The notes under the pieces are model-generated. The model saw only the letters and a list, made by a program, of their open reading frames with translations, did not search any database and was not told where the DNA came from. The position numbers were made by a program, and so were the translations under genes. Of a stretch of 32,000 nt of DNA, positions 14,058 to 24,957 are shown in pieces (the stretch's first letter is position 1; each line of letters opens with the position of its first letter). Source of the stretch: Edaphobacter aggregans (lineage in GTDB: Bacteria; Acidobacteriota; Terriglobia; Terriglobales; Acidobacteriaceae); the NCBI RefSeq assembly GCF_003945235.1, contig NZ_RSDW01000001.1, positions 1,800,001-1,832,000 on the forward strand, read 5' to 3'.

Positions 14058-14513
14058 TCAACGCTTGCGGCCACGCTTCTCTGCCGCTGTGCGGATCCGC
14101 GTGATCAGGTCTGTCCATCCGACATCGACACCGCGATCTGCATCACCGACCCACCCCATCGCGCGGTGTACAAATCGGACCCGGGTCAATCCGTTCTCTT
14201 CGGTAAGGCGGTACTGAATATTCGAGACCGCCGGCGTCGACATAAACAGCGGCCCGCATATCTCCAGCAGTGACGGCGGCTTGATCGCCTGCACCACGCC
14301 CCAGAAGTGTCCCGTGTTTTCTCCCAGATCGCGAAACCAACGCCCACCCGGCCATGCCTCCAACTTCATAGGCATCGGTTTCTCCGGGGTCGAGTTCAGT
14401 GGGCCCATCTGCTCCAGAATCGTTTCGAACACGATGTCGATCGGCGCCGCAATCTCTTCCTGCTTCACAATCTCGAAAGCCTGAACCACCTGCTCCTGAA
14501 TCGTCGCTGCCAT
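14058..14513 (-). CDS. SRPBCC superfamily protein (AHSA1/activator-of-Hsp90-ATPase-like)
   Basis: 151 aa. ...EIAAPIDIVFETILEQMGP...WPGGRWFRDLGENTGHFWGVVQAIKPPSLLEICGPLFMS...YRLTEENGLTRVRFVH is typical of the ArsR-adjacent SRPBCC proteins. The start shares 1 nt with the ArsR stop (TAATG). Confidence 0.8.
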   Translation of the reverse strand: MAATIQEQVVQAFEIVKQEEIAAPIDIVFETILEQMGPLNSTPEKPMPMKLEAWPGGRWFRDLGENTGHFWGVVQAIKPPSLLEICGPLFMSTPAVSNIQYRLTEENGLTRVRFVHRAMGWVGDADRGVDVGWTDLITRIRTAAEKRGRKR

Positions 14514-14881
14514 TACTCCTCCTTTGTCCCGTTGTCGCTTGAAATCATCCGTTCCAGAGCCTTGCGCTCCGCCCGCTCCTTGATCTGCCCCAGTTGATGG
14601 GTCCAGTACCGCTCAAACATCTTCACCCAGTCGTGCACCGGTTTCAGCTCAGCCGCATTCAACCGGTACATGCGGTGCTGTCCGCGCTTGATCACCGATA
14701 CCACGCCAACCTTGCGCAAAACACCCAGGTGTTTCGAAACCGTCGGCTGCGACATGCGCAATCGAACCACTACCTCGCCGACCGCATACTCTCTGCCATC
14801 GGCAAGCACACCTATCACTTCGCGCCGCCGGGGCTCTGCGATTGCGTTGAAGACGTCCGTTGTTGTTGCCGCCCGTGCCAT
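14513..14881 (-). CDS. ArsR/SmtB-family metalloregulator-type transcriptional repressor
   Basis: VFNAIAEPRRREVIGVLADGREYAVGEVVVRLRMSQPTVSKHLGVLRKVGVVSVIKRGQHRMYRLN is the canonical ArsR winged-HTH. Confidence 0.85.
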   Translation of the reverse strand: MARAATTTDVFNAIAEPRRREVIGVLADGREYAVGEVVVRLRMSQPTVSKHLGVLRKVGVVSVIKRGQHRMYRLNAAELKPVHDWVKMFERYWTHQLGQIKERAERKALERMISSDNGTKEE

Positions 14882-17344: not shown

Positions 17345-20300
17345 ATGGCGCAGAAATCCTTCACCGTCTTTGTGTCCTCATCGCGCGACATGGCCGAGTG
17401 GGCTGCCCTGGCAGTTTCCAAGGTACGTGAATTTGCCGTAGACCACGGTCTTACTGATCTACAACCTTTTGATTACCGCGATATCGATCCAGCAGACGTA
17501 AATCATTCGACAACTTGGCAGGACAACGTGGGAGCCCCCTCGCGGATCGGATCCGCGCTGACACTAGTGCTCTTGGGGGAACGCCTTGGCACGCCGTTGC
17601 CTAACACCTTTATGCTTAAGCGTGACATTTATGAAAGGCTCCAGAGGGGTGGCTATGATTGGGTGCACGTAGCTGGCATGGAACCGCTTCCACTCCGGCC
17701 CGACCAAGTACCTCTCACCGGTGTGTTATTTGAGTTCTTCGACGCTTTTCTACCACGAGCAGACGGCTCCAACCCTGGACCACTGCGAGTGATTTTCAAG
17801 GGCACAATGGAAACCACAGGAGAACCTGATTTCGGCAACGGTGACTTCCGCGCACATATTGAGGCCTCATCCGAAAACGCCCAACGAAAACGGCAGCTGC
17901 GGAAGGAATACGACCAGCAACTGGACTGGTTGAATTTGTTCTGGAGCAGGCTTTATGGCCTTCAACAGCACGCCAGCGTATTCTGTCCGAACAAAAACTC
18001 GCTTCGGGAATATCTGCAGCGCACTCTTGCCGCAGAGTTCCTGGCCAAAGGAGGTCATGATCCAGCACCCTCGGTGAGGCGAACCGATGCCGTGAGTGTG
18101 GAGTTGCCAGGTCCGGCCCCATACGATATTGAACGAGCGTACCTTTTCTTTGGGCGTGGGCCACAACTCGCGGAACTCTCCCGCCGAGTTCTGCAGCAGG
18201 ATGCAGCCCGAAGGCTAGTTCCCGTCATCGGCGAAAGCGGCGCTGGAAAATCTTCTTTATTGCGTGCGGGATTATTAAATGACGCCCGTTCCCAATCGCG
18301 ACGTCGTCTCGGTTGGCGCGCTGCGTTCCTGTCTCTATCGGAACGCCCTGTCGATCAGCGACCCTTGACTTTTCTAGCCGCCGTTTTGACCGAGCCTTGC
18401 GTCTTGCCTGAACTAGGTCCTATGGATGCCATTCGCCAGAGACTAGACGGGGTGGATCCTCAGGAGGCTACGCGGCGCTTACTCGAAATCCTTGCTGCAA
18501 TAAATCCGACGCATCCGCCAGGGCTCGGTGCCCCAAGAATACTGCTCGTCGTAGATCAAGTTGAACTGGCGCTCGACGGAGCTCGGCTAGAGACATCTGA
18601 AGAAGCCTCAGAATGGAGGTTTTTTCTCCAAGCCCTCGCCGCACTAGGTGGCTCTCTTTCGGAACCAGAGATGCGCAAGGCGTTCCAGGAGCCAGCCGAA
18701 CGGATCTCGATGCGACTCCCTTTCACCGTTGTGCTCGGACTACCCGCAGACCGCTTCGATTTACTCAATGCCGCCATGTTGCCCGGTGAACACGTATTTT
18801 GGTTGCCGCGACTGATAGACGAAACGGCAGTGCGCGAAGTAGTCACTGGTACATTCGAGGCATTGGGTTTGAGCATCGACGCGAAGGCTCGCGAAACGCT
18901 TTGCAGCGAGGCCGTCAGATTGGCGGTAGACACTGAGGCGTCCATCCTCCCGCTATTGGCGGTGACCCTTGCAAACCTGCATGATGAATGGAAGCATCGC
19001 TGTTACCTCGAGGCTAAGTGGAAAGAGAGCGCGGAGCCAGGAGACACCCTCCCAAAAGCGTTGCGGTGGATAGGTCTCTTGCCCCCCGAAGACACACGTG
19101 TAGACATCGCATTGCAACACGTCAACGCTCAAGGTGAGATTGGCGAGTCGATCGCGCGCTTGGGAGAACTCGCATGGACCGAAGCCGAGACACGAGAAGA
19201 GGGCTTTAAGATAGCTGTTCAACGCCTTCCTATCAGCCTCCTGCAATCACGAGTGCAGTCGGGTGAGATCACAGGCCGAGATTTCGCATTAACGTGGCTG
19301 CTGCGGCGATTAGTGGTTGTGTCTGGTGAGGAAACGATTCCAGATCGCCTTGTCGGTCTGCGAGACAGCGCATTGGAGGAATTCGCCCGCCCGATGGCGG
19401 AATCGCTTCAGCGTCATCGGCTGTTGGCCCGGCGGGATGATGGGACCTGGTGGCTCGTGCATCAAGCGGTGCTGGACAGGTGGCCACGAGCGGCCGCATG
19501 GCGAAAAAACGAGATGCAGACTTACCGCACGATGGCAGCCATGGAGTTAGACAGGCGGCGCTGGGTCGAAGAGACCGCCGCCGGTGAACCGGACGCAGAT
19601 CGATGGCTATGGACGCGAGAGCGGCAGGTCGAACTCGCGTTCGATTGGATAATGGCGCGCGGCCTAACAGATAACCTGGCGCTCGCCTCCTTCGTGAAGG
19701 AAGGGACAATTGCAGCTGTTCGATCGGATGGCTTGCGTGCGGGTCGAATATTACGCGCCGCGACGTACTTCAATGATCTCGCTTGGGCTACTGAGATCTT
19801 GGCGGTAGCGGGTGCCCACGGAACTAGAGCCACCAACGAGACTTGGAAAAATGGCACCGGCTCACTATTGAGAAATGCCTGCTATCACAGAAATTTCAAT
19901 CTTGTCGATTTATTGCTGGAGAACGGCGCGGATCCTAATTTGACGGTTGCAAACGGGTGGACCCCGCTGATGTACGCAGCGCAAAATGGCAACGAGCCTA
20001 TTGTTTCTCGCCTGCTTGCTGCGAGGGCAGACGCCAATCACACCACTGAGGATGGGTGGACCGCACTGATCCTCGCAGCGGAGAATGGCAAGGAGGCTAT
20101 TGTTGCTCGCCTCCTTGCCGCAGGAGCCGAGATCAACCACTCCGCTAACAATGGGTGCACGGCACTGATGCTTGCAGCGAAGAATGGCCACGCGGCTATT
20201 GTTTCTCGCCTATTTACCGCAGGAGCCGAGATCGACCACTCCGCTAACGATGGGGAGACCGCGCTGATCATGGCAGCGGAGAATGACCACGAAGCCATTG

Positions 20301-21265
20301 TTTCTCGCCTCCTTGCCGCAGGGGCTGAGATTAACCACCCCACTCACGATGGGTGCACCGCCCTGATGATCGCGGCGCAAAATGGCCATGAGTCTATTGT
20401 TGCTCGCCTCCTTGCCGCAGGGGCCGAGATCAACCGCGCCACTCTCGTTGAGAATGCTCAGCCACCAGTGGAAGGGCTGAAGAGAATCGACATTGGCACG
20501 GCCATCGTTCCTTCAGGCGACCATCCCAAGAACACTGACCGGCGGACCGCGCTTATGCTCGCTGCGCAGAATGGACACAATTCCGTTGTTGCCCGATTAA
20601 TCGCCGCCGGCGCTGAAATCGACAGAGCTTCGACCAAAGCAAGGTGGACTGCTCTTACCTTGGCGGCGGAGGGCGGACACACCACAGTAGTTGACTGCCT
20701 GCTTAAGGCCGGCGCTGAGACAGACCACACTGCATACGGCCGGCGAACAGCCCTTATTCTTGCTGCGGAGAATGGCCATGAGGCTGTGGTCGATCGCCTG
20801 GTTAGTGCCGGAGCTAGGATCGATTTGGCAAAAAATGATGGAGAGACGCCTTTGATTGTCGCCGCTGCAGTCGGTCATGCCACTATAGTCGATCGTTTGC
20901 TTGCAGCGGGAGCCGCAGTTGATCTTGCAGATGAAAACGGGAACACCCCGCTAAGTCATGTCGCTGGATTCGGTAGTCTTCCCATCGCCACGCAACTGCT
21001 TTCGAAGGGGGCAAACGTGAATCCTGCAAATCATGACGGTAGCACGCCGCTGATGGAAGCTGTACGGGACCGAAACGAAGGGATGGTTCTATTGCTCTTG
21101 AGACATGGGGCCAATTCGGCATTGCGTGACAGCGATGGCCTATCCGCGCTAGATATTGCCCTTAAGATAAGGGCGAGAGCGATCACGAGGATACTCTCGA
21201 ACGCAGCCAAAGAGTTCGTCCCTGAAGGAGAATCTCAACTCAATTTTGAAAAGAGATCGGAATGA
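17345..21265 (+). CDS. NLR-like STAND protein: DUF4062/TIR-like N-domain + P-loop STAND NTPase + helical/winged-helix region + 13 ankyrin repeats
   Basis: N-terminus FTVFVSSSRDMAEW...LTLVLLGERLGTPLP...LTGVLFEF. PYDIERAYLFFGRGPQLAEL...VPVIGESGAGKSSLLRAGLL (Walker A at nt 18230-18256). ILLVVDQVELAL (Walker B). ...WWLVHQAVLDRWPRAAAW. Ankyrin repeats (GWTPLMYAAQNGNEPIVSRLLAARADANH and similar) span about nt 19850-21200. Confidence 0.85.
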   Translation: MAQKSFTVFVSSSRDMAEWAALAVSKVREFAVDHGLTDLQPFDYRDIDPADVNHSTTWQDNVGAPSRIGSALTLVLLGERLGTPLPNTFMLKRDIYERLQRGGYDWVHVAGMEPLPLRPDQVPLTGVLFEFFDAFLPRADGSNPGPLRVIFKGTMETTGEPDFGNGDFRAHIEASSENAQRKRQLRKEYDQQLDWLNLFWSRLYGLQQHASVFCPNKNSLREYLQRTLAAEFLAKGGHDPAPSVRRTDAVSVELPGPAPYDIERAYLFFGRGPQLAELSRRVLQQDAARRLVPVIGESGAGKSSLLRAGLLNDARSQSRRRLGWRAAFLSLSERPVDQRPLTFLAAVLTEPCVLPELGPMDAIRQRLDGVDPQEATRRLLEILAAINPTHPPGLGAPRILLVVDQVELALDGARLETSEEASEWRFFLQALAALGGSLSEPEMRKAFQEPAERISMRLPFTVVLGLPADRFDLLNAAMLPGEHVFWLPRLIDETAVREVVTGTFEALGLSIDAKARETLCSEAVRLAVDTEASILPLLAVTLANLHDEWKHRCYLEAKWKESAEPGDTLPKALRWIGLLPPEDTRVDIALQHVNAQGEIGESIARLGELAWTEAETREEGFKIAVQRLPISLLQSRVQSGEITGRDFALTWLLRRLVVVSGEETIPDRLVGLRDSALEEFARPMAESLQRHRLLARRDDGTWWLVHQAVLDRWPRAAAWRKNEMQTYRTMAAMELDRRRWVEETAAGEPDADRWLWTRERQVELAFDWIMARGLTDNLALASFVKEGTIAAVRSDGLRAGRILRAATYFNDLAWATEILAVAGAHGTRATNETWKNGTGSLLRNACYHRNFNLVDLLLENGADPNLTVANGWTPLMYAAQNGNEPIVSRLLAARADANHTTEDGWTALILAAENGKEAIVARLLAAGAEINHSANNGCTALMLAAKNGHAAIVSRLFTAGAEIDHSANDGETALIMAAENDHEAIVSRLLAAGAEINHPTHDGCTALMIAAQNGHESIVARLLAAGAEINRATLVENAQPPVEGLKRIDIGTAIVPSGDHPKNTDRRTALMLAAQNGHNSVVARLIAAGAEIDRASTKARWTALTLAAEGGHTTVVDCLLKAGAETDHTAYGRRTALILAAENGHEAVVDRLVSAGARIDLAKNDGETPLIVAAAVGHATIVDRLLAAGAAVDLADENGNTPLSHVAGFGSLPIATQLLSKGANVNPANHDGSTPLMEAVRDRNEGMVLLLLRHGANSALRDSDGLSALDIALKIRARAITRILSNAAKEFVPEGESQLNFEKRSE
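19950..20445 (+). repeat. five tandem 99-bp (33-codon) ankyrin-repeat units with high nucleotide identity
   Basis: The unit second halves are near-identical at the DNA level (attgtt[g/t]ctcgcctccttgccgcagg[a/g]gc[c/t]gagat[c/t]aaccac). The first halves differ at specific codons. Confidence 0.75.
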
Positions 21266-21975
21266 ACATAGGCCTGGTCGTGAATGCGCGCGGGAAGTTG
21301 TGTTTAGTCCATGATGAGAAATTTGAGGCCCCGCCCATTTTCGTCGGATATCATCTCGACAAAAGGCAGCTCGAGATCTTTTTCGAGACTGGCGCGAGCT
21401 ACCCTATCGATTGGGAAGCGACTGATGAGATGGACGCCTACTTACAGAAGAGTAACAAGATCTTGATCATCCTCATGCGTCGCAAAAAACCCGTGGAGGG
21501 TTATGACACCTCTTTATTACATCTCATTAAAGGCGAGGCGATAGAGATGTCAGAAGACTCAGGCGAATCTCTGCCGAGCCCGGACTCCGAAACAGACACT
21601 ATCGAGAAGCAGGAAGAATCTCATAAAGTTACAACTATAGATACTCCTGTAATTTCCTCGATCACATCCATCACTGACGCGACTTTTGAAAACGATGTCA
21701 TAAAAGCACTACACCCCGTCCTTGTGTATTTTTGGACCGAATGGTGCGGCTCCTGTCGCTCATTAGGCTCGGCACTCAATGAATTGTTCGCCGAACTGCA
21801 GGACCGGATTTCGATCTATTCGATCAACGCAGACGAATATCCTGGCTTGGCCTCCAAATATGGTATTCGCGACATTCCGACTCTCCTTCTTTTCAGGGGT
21901 GGCGAGGTCGCGGCAACAAGGATCGGCGCGCTGGGCAAACTGCCCCTGCGATCCTGGTTAGAAAAATTATTCTAA
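21262..21975 (+). CDS. orphan N-terminal domain fused through an acidic Ser/Thr-rich linker to a thioredoxin domain (WCGSC)
   Basis: The ATG overlaps the STAND gene stop (ATGA at 21262-21265). C-terminal sequence ITDATFENDVIKALHPVLVYFWTEWCGSCRSLGSALNELFAEL...YGIRDIPTLLLFRGGEVAATRIG is a complete Trx fold with CxxC and the cis-Pro IPT. I do not recognise the first ~100 aa. Confidence 0.8.
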   Translation: MNIGLVVNARGKLCLVHDEKFEAPPIFVGYHLDKRQLEIFFETGASYPIDWEATDEMDAYLQKSNKILIILMRRKKPVEGYDTSLLHLIKGEAIEMSEDSGESLPSPDSETDTIEKQEESHKVTTIDTPVISSITSITDATFENDVIKALHPVLVYFWTEWCGSCRSLGSALNELFAELQDRISIYSINADEYPGLASKYGIRDIPTLLLFRGGEVAATRIGALGKLPLRSWLEKLF

Positions 21976-22098: not shown

Positions 22099-22668
22099 TC
22101 AGGCCTCCGCAGGTAAAAAAGAACGTCGTTTTTGCAACACAACAAATATGGTCAATGAAACAGCCAAACAGATGAACGTAAAGATCCACAACGAAAGAAG
22201 CACGTTCTTTACGATGGCGATCGACTGTTCAGTCCAGACTTTCTGCGGATCATATTCACTATCTCTTAAGGCGTCCTCAACTCGATAGTTAGAGTTAAGG
22301 ACTGCAGCTACGTCTGGACGCACTCTGAAGCCTTCAATGATCCTGCCCTGACCGGAGCCGGGTGAAACTACAAACGACTGGTTAAGGAAGAGAAAGCAAA
22401 CAAGGCCCAAAGCAAAACTCAGAATTGCAATTTTCATTCGCCGTTCAAGCAAGGGCTCAGATGTCCTGTACCAAAACTGGAAAACCCAGATCGCCGCGAG
22501 CAGTTCAAGCGTTGACGTGCTTACAGATGTGACACTGACTGGTGGAGGCGCCACATTAAGCCAGATCGTGGCCATTGGGACGATAAAAACACCTTTCAGC
22601 ATCACGGAGCTTAGTTGTCGAAAGTCCGCGAGCACTTCGCCGAATTCACGCAATTGGCTAACGGCCAT
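22099..22668 (-). CDS. hypothetical 4-TM membrane protein
   Basis: 189-aa ORF 5 nt downstream of the preceding ORF. Hydrophobic segments GVFIVPMATIWLNV, LELLAAIWVFQFW, IAILSFALGLVCFLFL and LLSLWIFTFICLAVSLTIFVVL. AT-rich codon usage. No recognised family. Confidence 0.55.
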   Translation of the reverse strand: MAVSQLREFGEVLADFRQLSSVMLKGVFIVPMATIWLNVAPPPVSVTSVSTSTLELLAAIWVFQFWYRTSEPLLERRMKIAILSFALGLVCFLFLNQSFVVSPGSGQGRIIEGFRVRPDVAAVLNSNYRVEDALRDSEYDPQKVWTEQSIAIVKNVLLSLWIFTFICLAVSLTIFVVLQKRRSFLPAEA

Positions 22669-22673
22669 GGTCT

Positions 22674-23498
22674 TTAGTGTTTAGCATTGGGGCGAAAAGT
22701 TATTGCTCCTGGCTCTCGGATCTCAAAGTTACCTTCTTCGGGGCCGTTGAGTTCCGTGGGCCATTCAGCGAGATAATGATATCGACCGATCAGTTTGACA
22801 TCACCTTCAACCATGTCATTCCATTGATCAGTAAGTGGGGTATGCGAATTTATGCACTTTTTGTATTCCAATAAAGTCATAAATTTAACGCGTGCTCTTG
22901 GTGGCTCTATTGACACACGAACCTTATACCCAACTGCTGGACCGCGTTCGACAGGACGTTGGATAAGAGTAGACTTTCGGTCTTTGGCAAATGTCTGTAT
23001 CGCTAGGTCTAAATGATTGATCTGTTCCGCAATATCTGCCGAACAATCAGCTTCCTTCTTTTGTAGCGCCGAGTTGCCCTTTAGGTGAACCAACAAGTCT
23101 ACGCATTTCTTTATACTTCCTTGGACGTTTGCCAACGGTATGATCCAAAAATTCTCAGTCGGAACCGATTTTTGCAGGTCTCTTTTAAGAGCTTCCGTCC
23201 GTATCATTGCTTCCATTGGGATTGACAGAGGATCCGAATCGGAGAAAACCAGTCCAAGCGGCACAGGCGTCATGTCATAAAGAACGCTGTTGGCTTTTGA
23301 ATCAATGGCGAACCGGGTTTTACCTAAAAAACGGTCGTCAGATACTATTTCCTCATCAGCTAGCTTTCTGAGAAGCGACATCGTCTCTTCAGTATTTGCA
23401 CCAGGACTCGATTGTCCGTTCGCCCGGCACATCAGGCAGAATATTGTCGCAAGCGAGAAAGCCCAGGATATCCTCCGACTGCGGCTGAAATTGACCAT
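22674..23498 (-). CDS. hypothetical secreted protein
   Basis: 274-aa ORF with signal peptide MVNFSRSRRISWAFSLATIFCLMCRANGQ. The C-terminal beta-rich part (YKVRVSIEPPRARVKF...GRYHYLAEWP) is vaguely PEGA-like. No confident family. Confidence 0.5.
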   Translation of the reverse strand: MVNFSRSRRISWAFSLATIFCLMCRANGQSSPGANTEETMSLLRKLADEEIVSDDRFLGKTRFAIDSKANSVLYDMTPVPLGLVFSDSDPLSIPMEAMIRTEALKRDLQKSVPTENFWIIPLANVQGSIKKCVDLLVHLKGNSALQKKEADCSADIAEQINHLDLAIQTFAKDRKSTLIQRPVERGPAVGYKVRVSIEPPRARVKFMTLLEYKKCINSHTPLTDQWNDMVEGDVKLIGRYHYLAEWPTELNGPEEGNFEIREPGAITFRPNAKH

Positions 23499-23700
23499 CA
23501 GTACAAACAGGCCTCCTCGCGAGTATGACGAACGGAGTGGGAGCTTCCGGTTTAGTATAGAACGAATCGCAGGCTAGAAGTGCTGGGCCCCAATTCCACT
23601 TATTTCGGATGCTAGACCTCATATACCCGAAGATACCTTGGGTGCGTCAGTTGTCTTCCGAAGCACCATGCTGTGCATTCGGGACAAAGGGAGCGAAGGG

Positions 23701-24957
23701 ATGCATTTCGGTCTCCAGCGGCGAGCAATGTCCAGTGGTCTTCTTACAGCCACGCTACTGTTCGGCGCAGGATACTTGAGCGCTCAGTCTAAAGACCAGA
23801 CCCGAAGTGTCGAGATCGAAACAAAACCGTCTTCGACTCACAAGCCGGGTCAATACTTTGCTCTGATCGTCGGCATCAACGATTACCAGCACTTGCCACA
23901 CCTTTCGACGCCTGACAATGACGCGCAAGAACTCACGTCGATATTACGCGATCAATACGGATTCAAGACCGAACTACTACTGGAGGCCACGCGAGATCAA
24001 ATAATCGGGGCATTCGATCGGTATAGGCGCACCTTAAACGATACGGATAGCTTGTTGATCTACTATGCTGGGCACGGATACTTCGACGACGAGATGCACG
24101 AGGCCTACTGGGCTCCAGTTGACGCTGGAAAGGATACATTCGCCCGCTGGATCATTGCAGAGGACGTTACCGGAGCAGCGCAGGCGTTTCCCGCACGTCA
24201 TGTGTTGGTGATTTCCGATAGCTGTTACTCAGGAATGCTAACGCAGGACACGGAGCGATCCACAATATCGGATCGCGCGAACACCCTCGAGAAGATGCTT
24301 CAAACGAAATCCCGATATGTGATGTCAAGCGGCGGTAATGAGCCTGTTGCAGATAGCGATGCGCCAGGACACTTTTCAAAACATTCCGTATTCGCCAATG
24401 TTCTTTTACAGGATCTGAGCCAGTTCCAGGCAAGCGAATTCACGGCGGAGCAACTCTTCGGGCAGATCAGACAACAGGTTCGAGAGCGCGCTACTCAGAG
24501 GCCCATCTTCAGACCAATCCAAGGATCTGAGGAGGGAGGTGACTTCGTTTTTATACGTGTGCGAAGAGGAGAAGACGTCCATTCACGCGAAAAAGAACCT
24601 CTGCCACCTCCGATAAATCCAGACACAGAAGCAGTGCGCGCTGCATTAGATAACTACGAAGAGGCCTACGCCAGCATGAACGTGCGGGAATTGAAGAAAG
24701 TGTGGCCTTCGCTCTCTAAAGATCAAGAGAAGGCGATCAAGAGTGGCTTTGAGACACCAGGTCTGAAGGCAGTAAAAGTAGAACTGCGGAATCGTATAGT
24801 GCATATTGATGGAGGCACGGCCACCGCAACATGTGATCAATGGATGATCTATTCCCTTGGAGGACGGCGGCGGCCGCCCCAAACAAACTCCGTCGAGATT
24901 CTACTGAGCAAAAATAGCGTCGGAGACTGGGCCGTGAGTAGAGTTGAGGGAAAATAG
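23701..24957 (+). CDS. secreted caspase-like (peptidase C14) protein with NTF2/SnoaL-like C-terminal domain
   Basis: ATG at 23701 preceded by aaGGGAGcgaaggg. Signal peptide MHFGLQRRAMSSGLLTATLLFGAGYLSAQS. Caspase p20 hallmarks are YFALIVGINDY, the His in LLIYYAGHGY, and the Cys in HVLVISDSCYSG. C-terminus AVRAALDNYEEAYASMNVRELKKVWPS. Confidence 0.8.
   Translation: MHFGLQRRAMSSGLLTATLLFGAGYLSAQSKDQTRSVEIETKPSSTHKPGQYFALIVGINDYQHLPHLSTPDNDAQELTSILRDQYGFKTELLLEATRDQIIGAFDRYRRTLNDTDSLLIYYAGHGYFDDEMHEAYWAPVDAGKDTFARWIIAEDVTGAAQAFPARHVLVISDSCYSGMLTQDTERSTISDRANTLEKMLQTKSRYVMSSGGNEPVADSDAPGHFSKHSVFANVLLQDLSQFQASEFTAEQLFGQIRQQVRERATQRPIFRPIQGSEEGGDFVFIRVRRGEDVHSREKEPLPPPINPDTEAVRAALDNYEEAYASMNVRELKKVWPSLSKDQEKAIKSGFETPGLKAVKVELRNRIVHIDGGTATATCDQWMIYSLGGRRRPPQTNSVEILLSKNSVGDWAVSRVEGK

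Follow-up and report, generated by a model that had tools for sequence, protein, structure and literature searches.

Which function is served by a gene encoding a STAND NTPase with ankyrin repeats and by the thioredoxin-encoding gene that overlaps it is the question raised by positions 17345 to 21975 of a 32,000-nucleotide (nt) stretch of DNA from Edaphobacter aggregans (Acidobacteriota, Acidobacteriaceae; host strain DSM 19364, cultured), hereafter referred to as the window. A reading of the window made from sequence only (the sequence-only reading) had regarded the pair, here termed ORF A and ORF B, as an NLR-like conflict module coupled to a thioredoxin partner. We propose, with a probability of roughly 0.5, that ORF A and ORF B specify a split NLR-like nSTAND1 conflict receptor, in which the region following the ankyrin array represents the input or bait end. 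This region comprises the N-terminal ~95 amino acids (aa) of ORF B, designated ND, and the tail which follows it; the first 255 aa of ORF A are designated the head. The proposal is founded on the domain identities, the relation between split and fused forms, the conservation of the neighborhood, the modularity of the tails and the strong conservation of the ND, each evident from comparison of the sequences. The features of the pair are as follows.

17345..21265, plus strand: ORF A, 1306 aa, identical to WP_125484682.1 / RSL16011.1 of E. aggregans, the sole annotation of which is "ankyrin repeat protein"
17345..18109, plus strand: head domain, aa 1-255, candidate effector (15-sequence alignment, AlphaFold2 [AF2] model)
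18110..19714, plus strand: nSTAND1 STAND NTPase module and helical/winged-helix part, aa 256 to ~790 (PF20703)
18230..18253, plus strand: Walker A motif GESGAGKS, aa 296-303 (K302)
18542..18559, plus strand: Walker B motif LLVVDQ, aa 400-405 (D404)
19850..21214, plus strand: ankyrin array, consisting of an N-terminal cap and 12 canonical repeats, the fifth and sixth of which are separated by a 30-aa insertion (Pfam, motifs)
21262..21265, plus strand: ATGA overlap of the ORF A stop codon and the ORF B start codon (read from the sequence)
21262..21975, plus strand: ORF B, 237 aa, whose 90% cluster includes RSL16012.1 / WP_260472729.1 of E. aggregans, annotated "thioredoxin domain-containing protein"
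21262..21546, plus strand: ND, ~95 aa, beta-rich (AF2 model, alignments, fusions elsewhere)
21547..21660, plus strand: acidic disordered linker (predicted local distance difference test [pLDDT] score of 25-41 in the AF2 model)
21661..21972, plus strand: TrxA-like thioredoxin (Trx) domain (Pfam PF00085, Foldseek, alignment)
21742-21756, plus strand: WCGSC active-site motif
21874-21882, plus strand: cis-Pro motif IPT

The ATGA overlap, whose presence and coordinates agree with those given in the sequence-only reading, indicates that the two genes are putatively translationally coupled, and the same 4-nt overlap is found in loci L001, L004, L005, L009 and L010; a promoter and terminator scan yielded signals at chance level only. 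When ORF B was used as a search query, its relatives proved to share 55-72% identity with it across the ND (best local alignment), their C-terminal halves being unrelated. Within the ORF A family, the ND is usually a fused C-terminal domain, being joined in frame to the ankyrin C-terminus in P0002, P0003, P0005, P0007, P0008, P0012, P0013, L022 and L052 (P0005 and the L022 ORF, the latter from an Acidobacteriaceae metagenome-assembled genome [MAG], are equal in length). Because the ND is fused elsewhere in this family, the two genes of the window represent the split form of a single polypeptide. The split itself is considered real because it recurs in independent assemblies, namely, L051 (95%), P0001 with P0025, and L010, the last of these representing the Trx-tailed orthologue. 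A single-chain Ank-ND-Trx protein also exists (P0158).

The coupling of the two genes claimed in the sequence-only reading was thus borne out by a neighborhood check, in which seven ORF A homologues and L052 proved to be fused and nine distinct split loci (L001, L003, L004/5, L006-8, L009, L010, L011, L040 and L051) to carry an ND gene as the immediate neighbor of a STAND-Ank gene. A STAND-ankyrin gene adjoins the relative of ORF B in every genomic context within L001 and L003 to L011. The neighboring gene encodes nSTAND1 and ankyrin repeats in L001, L003 and L011; in L004, L005 and L009, its ankyrin repeats follow a P-loop NTPase of another type (GPPGIGKSK), in some cases accompanied by tetratricopeptide repeats (TPR). 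An nSTAND1-Ank gene is present also in L006 to L008, where it is convergent with a 136-aa ND gene, the two lying tail to tail with an 11-nt gap.

Several of these loci deserve separate description. In L006 to L008, the adjacency of the ND and nSTAND1-Ank genes is retained and translational coupling is not. The Desulfovibrionaceae MAG OY762289 (L040:3070-8932) harbors a head-nSTAND1-Ank gene followed by two ND genes, the first product being 424 aa in length with the order ND-ND-tail and the second 245 aa with the order ND-tail; as judged from this arrangement, the ND can be tandemly duplicated and be present in multiple copies within one locus. In L001 (4042-8004), the STAND-ankyrin gene upstream of the ND is broken into three ORFs of 946, 154 and 178 aa, representing either a pseudogene or an assembly frameshift.

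The element which is conserved at these loci is the ND. When 1.84 billion representatives were searched exhaustively with the ND profile, only 111 clusters were obtained at E<=1e-3. Across this family, the ND is 56-80% identical to the copy in the window, and the head and NTPase of its carriers are 25-34% identical or non-homologous. Its AF2 model consists of eight strands and one helix (pLDDT 93-97), and residues C14, H17, D18, W51, P77 and G80 are among those that are invariant in the alignments. No match to the ND, distant relatives included, was obtained in Pfam, NCBIfam, PADLOC, PHROGs or PDB sequences, while Foldseek searches of PDB and BFVD with the ND-Trx model yielded Trx matches only, the Trx part dominating. 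A resemblance to ARPC4 (Pfam E=0.069, PDB E=0.31) was judged to be due to chance.

The ND is not restricted to proteins with an nSTAND1 center. It also follows non-homologous NTPase modules of the GPPGIGKSK type (L004, L009), of the TIR-like/GGAGKT type of Caballeronia (L038) and of the NACHT type with WD40 repeats (P0165), the Ank+ND unit being tallied behind three NTPase modules other than nSTAND1. The domain architectures in which it occurs appear, from their sequences, to be those of conflict systems and include the following.

nSTAND1+Ank+ND
NACHT/nSTAND1+WD40+ND+TPR, 2330 aa
TPR+ND
AAA_16 followed at a distance by ND
TIR+ND+tail (P0161, P0178)
Ank+ND+cold-shock domain (CSD) (P0157)
three stretches matching the ND profile, from the N-terminus, plus KTSC and pentapeptide repeats (P0171)
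TIR-like head, different NTPase, TPR-like repeats, Ank and ND (L038, Caballeronia)

At least four unrelated classes of tail follow the ND, namely, Trx, CSD, a short beta-rich module and a domain of ~260-350 aa which contains the motif ...Y[VL]xF[FY]xx[FY]VRGxxGxF... and has no Pfam match. The ~260-aa tail is common to TIR-ND-tail, ND-tail and head-nSTAND1-Ank-tail proteins (P0161, P0178, P0162, P0164 and the C-terminus of L053:5929-10899); in L053, whose head-nSTAND1-Ank protein is devoid of an ND, it is positioned directly behind the ankyrin array (E=8e-16 against P0164). The contigs encoding P0161 measure only about 2 kb, which is insufficient to reveal its neighboring genes. The possibility that the short beta-rich tail is a diverged ND copy was considered and set aside, as the by-eye register returned by hhalign was accompanied by a probability of 0.55%. 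The Trx tail was detected in only three clusters of the ND family. The sequence-only reading had considered the thioredoxin to be the partner of ORF A, a role which is more appropriately assigned to the ND.

The remaining parts of ORF B correspond to their earlier description as an orphan domain, an acidic linker and a thioredoxin, since PF00085, the WCGSC and IPT motifs and a disordered linker are all present. The Thioredoxin profile PF00085 matches aa 135-234 with 81.7 bits (cutoff, 23.5; E=4e-23), and an alignment with E. coli TrxA gives an identity of 47%; Foldseek matched the domain to E. coli TrxA entries with a probability of 1.0 and an identity of 39-51%. As a housekeeping TrxA would be expected to combine a WCGPC motif with an equivalog-level score, it is of relevance that the Trx domain of the window displays neither: its motif is the non-canonical WCGSC, and the NCBIfam TrxA equivalog reaches 103.5 bits where its cutoff demands 138. 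The other two active sites read WCGPC (P0026) and WVGPC (P0158), the latter lacking the nucleophilic Cys, although P0158 is a contig-end fragment in which a sequencing error is possible. This lack of uniformity, coupled with the sub-cutoff equivalog score and the replaceability of the tail, argues against obligatory redox catalysis and for binding or display, and the thioredoxin is, therefore, more likely to provide a binding surface than to act as a redox catalyst.

ORF A harbors the remaining components of the predicted receptor. The novel-STAND NTPase with Walker A and B motifs recognized in the sequence-only reading was confirmed, as nSTAND1 (PF20703) matches aa 256-552 with 115 bits (gathering cutoff, 27.1) and both motifs are located as listed above; the LFFGRG and WWLVHQ motifs are likewise present, and the C-terminal part of the PF20703 profile (278-375) matches again near aa 680-776, within the helical region. 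The ankyrin array is also clearly present (Ank_2, E=4e-97; twelve Ank stretches in Pfam), while the count of 13 repeats given previously is more accurately described as 12 canonical repeats and an N-terminal cap. Four copies of a 192-nt unit occur at a spacing of 99 nt, corresponding to one ankyrin repeat, between 19955 and 20443 with a DNA identity of 77-80%, which suggests that the array has undergone recent repeat expansion or homogenization.

It is this array that accounts for the strong PADLOC matches of ORF A (PDC-M72A, "Ankyrin" and MzaA), the best stretches of which all fall within aa 909-1280. Membership of PDC-M72A (E=5.6e-70) was rejected, as its best stretch represents ankyrin repeats (aa 1136-1280, profile positions 233-382 of 392). 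A weak P-loop match to mad3 (E=0.012) was also recorded, and ORF B had zero PADLOC matches. The statement in the sequence-only reading that the pair corresponds to no catalogued system consequently holds for PADLOC-DB.

An assignment of the head to DUF4062 or a TIR-like family, as put forward in that reading, drew no support from Pfam and no significant structural match, and is retained here as a hypothesis. No match to DUF4062 (PF13271) was obtained with the whole of ORF A at E<=1, with the head alone at E<=10 or with 15 head homologues; no other Pfam family matched the head alone at E<=10 or aa 1-255 within the whole protein, and TIR_2 matched weakly (E=0.0015) in a single one of the 15 homologues. 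A profile search of PDB sequences with the head returned nothing. The AF2 model of the head, calculated from the 15-sequence alignment (pLDDT 82; predicted template modeling score, 0.81), displays a predicted three-layer alpha/beta (beta-alpha-beta) core followed by long helices, for which Foldseek found nothing in PDB below E=0.01 and no TIR among the top 50, the matches being generic flavodoxin/Rossmann-like folds only (E>=0.01; template modeling score of <=0.39). Alignment of the head family by hhalign against three genuine TIR domains gave a probability of 2%, with the first strand, which reads VFVSSSRDM, alone being aligned. It is possible that the head is a very divergent NIR/TIR-like enzyme, NIR being the name now given to DUF4062, an NADase that resembles TIR and employs a catalytic Glu (bioRxiv 10.64898/2026.09.04.749371). 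Residues D46, D48, E79, R80, E130 and D133 are among those invariant in the 15 heads, E79 and E130 being at most candidates for an equivalent of the NIR/TIR Glu. In a metagenome census (15 loci), every complete head-bearing protein combined the head with nSTAND1 and Ank, the ankyrin arrays extending up to ~1400 aa.

The order of head, STAND switch and repeat array thus fits the NLR-like logic that had been attributed to the pair. In the proposed receptor, ORF A would provide an N-terminal output head (the effector candidate), an nSTAND1 switch for NTP-driven oligomerization and an ankyrin scaffold, while ORF B would supply the module that normally terminates the same polypeptide, i.e., the ND, an acidic flexible linker and a TrxA-like domain. 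The ND-Trx protein would presumably reassociate with the ankyrin array non-covalently. The post-ankyrin ND-tail may then function as a sensor or bait which, when engaged by an invader- or stress-derived ligand, would release the NTPase to oligomerize and thereby activate the head. We infer a conflict or immune role because of the precedent of the nSTAND1 family (PMC8195603) and the company in which the ND is found (TIR, NACHT, STAND); the direction of signaling, the binding of the ND to the ankyrin array and the action of the head as an effector are likewise putative.

A more specific and decidedly tentative form of this proposal is that the ND, Trx or CSD are baits presented behind the ankyrin array, such that these proteins would be bacterial counterparts of plant NLR-ID (integrated decoy/domain) receptors, with engagement of the bait triggering the nSTAND1 switch. 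The baits would mimic small conserved cellular proteins which are hijacked by phage proteins, and the conservation of the ND would reflect either continued mimicry of its cellular counterpart or the binding of a conserved ligand. Recruitment of host thioredoxin by T7-type DNA polymerases is an example of such a hijack. The most speculative suggestion of the sequence-only reading, according to which the thioredoxin is a guarded decoy, gains some plausibility because its position is taken elsewhere by a CSD and by other modules.

The ND is also encoded outside of STAND loci. A scan of GTDB species representatives identified 30 free-standing ND genes without an Ank or STAND neighbor. These homologues (30 loci among L012 to L044, together with L048:3537-3887) are 95-126 aa in length and 42-74% identical to the ND of ORF B, and their hosts are MAGs labelled Alphaproteobacteria, Rhodospirillaceae, Bdellovibrionales or proteobacterium. 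The gene order at these loci is dnaX-ybaB-recR, ND, a low-complexity protein of ~190 aa and ETF-QO, the respective counts being 15 for dnaX, 15 for ybaB, 21 for recR, 30 for the ND, 27 for the low-complexity protein and 13 for ETF-QO, with the neighboring genes of the 30 loci named by eye from sequence. The same arrangement surrounds a more distant free-standing relative, P0184, for which DnaX, YbaB and RecR were confirmed by Pfam. The free-standing ND is, apparently, an uncharacterized core small protein of that lineage, and the ND of the window is 71% identical to one such free-standing protein of ~95 aa (P0042).

This housekeeping neighborhood renders a non-immune function of the ND conceivable, and it forms the basis of an alternative in which the pair is a housekeeping or stress-signaling STAND regulator that the ND would connect to the replication or repair of DNA or to the nucleoid. 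The alternative draws on the dnaX-ybaB-recR-ND order in 21-30 alphaproteobacterial loci and the distant relative L048, on the nucleic acid-binding nature of the CSD tail and on the window itself, which is not an obvious defense island. It is nonetheless regarded as rather improbable, given that the STAND-linked form is patchy in its distribution (Acidobacteriota, Burkholderiales, Desulfovibrionaceae) and has flanks that are not conserved, that split, fused, truncated or fragmented variants occur among close relatives, and that TIR, NACHT and nSTAND1 architectures are typical of conflict systems (PMC8195603). Beyond the neighborhood of the free-standing genes and the character of the window, other observations also weigh against a split conflict receptor: no PADLOC-DB v2 system (Avs, NLR-like, bNACHT, etc.) was matched beyond the ankyrin repeats; the ND was absent from IMG/VR viral contigs and had no PHROG match on phage genomes, and no direct phage link was found; it is by position only that the head is labelled an effector, because it belongs to no recognizable enzymatic family; and more distant head-nSTAND1-Ank proteins exist without an ND, which implies that the ND is non-essential to the core machine.

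The direction of signaling could also be the reverse of that proposed. Modelled on the effector-associated domains of Kaur et al. (PMC8195603), the ND would in this case be an adaptor which couples C-terminal effectors (Trx, CSD or the 260-aa domain) to an NTPase-repeat chassis, leaving the head with a regulatory or sensory role. The ND is found with numerous alternative tails and on numerous chassis, a pattern typical of adaptor-effector shuffling; L040 and P0171 contain it in tandem; and the head never shuffles, being always associated with nSTAND1 and Ank, which is unusual for an effector. However, none of the recognizable tails is a toxin, Trx and CSD being folds with binding or housekeeping roles, many carriers end in an ND without a tail (L022, L038, P0163, P0169), the TIR-ND-tail proteins already possess a classical N-terminal effector, and the STAND proteins are without a second ND for homotypic pairing; an output function of the ND-tail is thus considered unlikely. 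A related suggestion of the sequence-only reading, in which the thioredoxin was either an effector or a redox gate, is weakened by the scarcity of the Trx tail and by the WVGPC variant. If the thioredoxin were a catalytic gate of this kind, or a chaperone, ORF B would control the switch by oxidizing or reducing cysteines in either ORF A or a target, for which both CxxC cysteines and the cis-Pro are available in the window and in P0026, in a domain with the aforementioned similarity to E. coli TrxA. Set against this are the loss of the nucleophilic Cys in one of the three Trx-bearing clusters, the non-canonical CGSC motif and low equivalog score of the window domain, and the existence of orthologues with the ND alone or with other tails in place of Trx, all of which make a redox gate quite improbable.

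Several known systems resemble the split receptor proposed here. A bona fide nSTAND1 center, a variable N-terminal domain and C-terminal superstructure-forming repeats are shared by the pair with the counter-invader systems in which nSTAND1 was defined (Kaur, Iyer, Burroughs & Aravind 2021, eLife, PMC8195603), but the pair differs from these in possessing an additional post-repeat ND-tail layer. The text of that study mentions nSTAND1 once and contains zero occurrences of DUF4062 or thioredoxin, and this head, the ankyrin-sensor version and the ND are not described therein. PsAvs2 is an Avs protein with a DUF4062 ("NIR") NADase head, the catalytic residue of which is E108 (bioRxiv 10.64898/2026.09.04.749371). 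Avs/AVAST proteins, PsAvs2 included, have a head, a STAND NTPase and a C-terminal repeat sensor in common with ORF A, and the first strand of ORF A, VFVSSSRDM, is reminiscent of TIR/NIR; its head also has invariant Glu residues. Conversely, ORF A has no Avs or NLR match in PADLOC, its head is not recognized by the DUF4062 and TIR profiles and gave no significant match in the structure search, its repeats are ankyrin rather than TPR, and an extra conserved domain, split off into a second gene, follows them. Neither ankyrin nor thioredoxin versions are mentioned in a 2026 Nature survey of STAND proteins.

Parallels may also be drawn with eukaryotic receptors. In fungal NACHT/NB-ARC-ANK NLRs, a STAND NTPase precedes ankyrin repeats that are highly similar and probably homogenized. 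The pair shares this combination, as reflected in its 192-nt units of 77-80% identity, but differs in NTPase clade and head, and we know of no ND-like terminal domain in the fungal proteins. Plant NLR-ID receptors, such as RRS1-WRKY and RGA5-HMA, are NLRs with an integrated decoy or domain, and here too an NLR chassis carries, at one position, alternative domains that resemble cellular proteins (TrxA-like, CSD and ND), i.e., a variable non-canonical domain with a cellular homologue, as exemplified by the similarity of the ND to P0042. The differences are that invader targeting of the TrxA-like, CSD and ND domains is hypothetical, and that the free-standing ND was found only in alphaproteobacterial MAGs and not in STAND-carrying genomes. 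To our knowledge, integrated baits have so far been demonstrated only in plant NLRs. In bacteria, an integrated decoy has been raised only hypothetically, for bNACHT11 (PMC11702601).

As judged by comparative evidence, the pair is an NLR-like STAND protein of an already known type which carries an undescribed domain, the ND. If the proposal of a split conflict receptor is correct, an unnamed and strongly conserved domain, present in nSTAND1, NACHT, other P-loop and TIR architectures, would join the prokaryotic NLR-like toolkit. The slot behind the repeat array would be modular, accepting thioredoxin, cold-shock and other domains, which is the architecture expected for integrated baits, and the relation of the ND to the free-standing gene at dnaX-ybaB-recR would provide a handle on an uncharacterized housekeeping protein. 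If it is incorrect, the pair would be an ordinary uncharacterized STAND-ankyrin protein, correctly parsed, with a lineage-specific Trx neighbor. The pair is small enough for heterologous work.

With regard to the wider genomic context, the placement of the pair on a tRNA-linked island by the sequence-only reading was not sustained: of the two tRNAs of the window, one precedes the pair by 10.8 kb and the other lies 8.4 kb beyond it, no att-like repeat was found (the D4 repeat represents the two tRNAs resembling each other), and integrase families had zero matches among the ten window neighbors scanned. No third conserved gene surrounds the STAND-linked loci, the flanks of which differ at every locus; an apparent nine-locus cluster was rejected as such a gene, as it consists of antisense ORFs over the ND. 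Mobile or conflict-type neighbors are present at some loci, including an IS21 IstB gene (L005), a TnsA-like gene (L011), patatin and PLD genes (L003, L010) and, by our own reading, an integrase-like ORF (L022); these neighbors and the variable flanks count in favor of the proposed conflict receptor.

Upstream of the pair in the window, a 122-aa protein encoded on the minus strand (14513-14881) matches PADLOC Csa3/CARF-associated winged-helix models (E=1.8e-14); no CRISPR feature was seen beside it, and it is probably an ordinary winged helix-turn-helix regulator. A caspase-like Peptidase_C14 gene (Pfam E=1.8e-24; PADLOC "caspase," E=8e-12) is located on the plus strand at 23638-24957, at a distance of 1.7 kb downstream from the pair; it is not conserved in the other loci, and no link to the pair was established. 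Between the pair and this gene lie two unannotated minus-strand genes at 22099-22668, whose product appears hydrophobic by eye, and 22674-23498.

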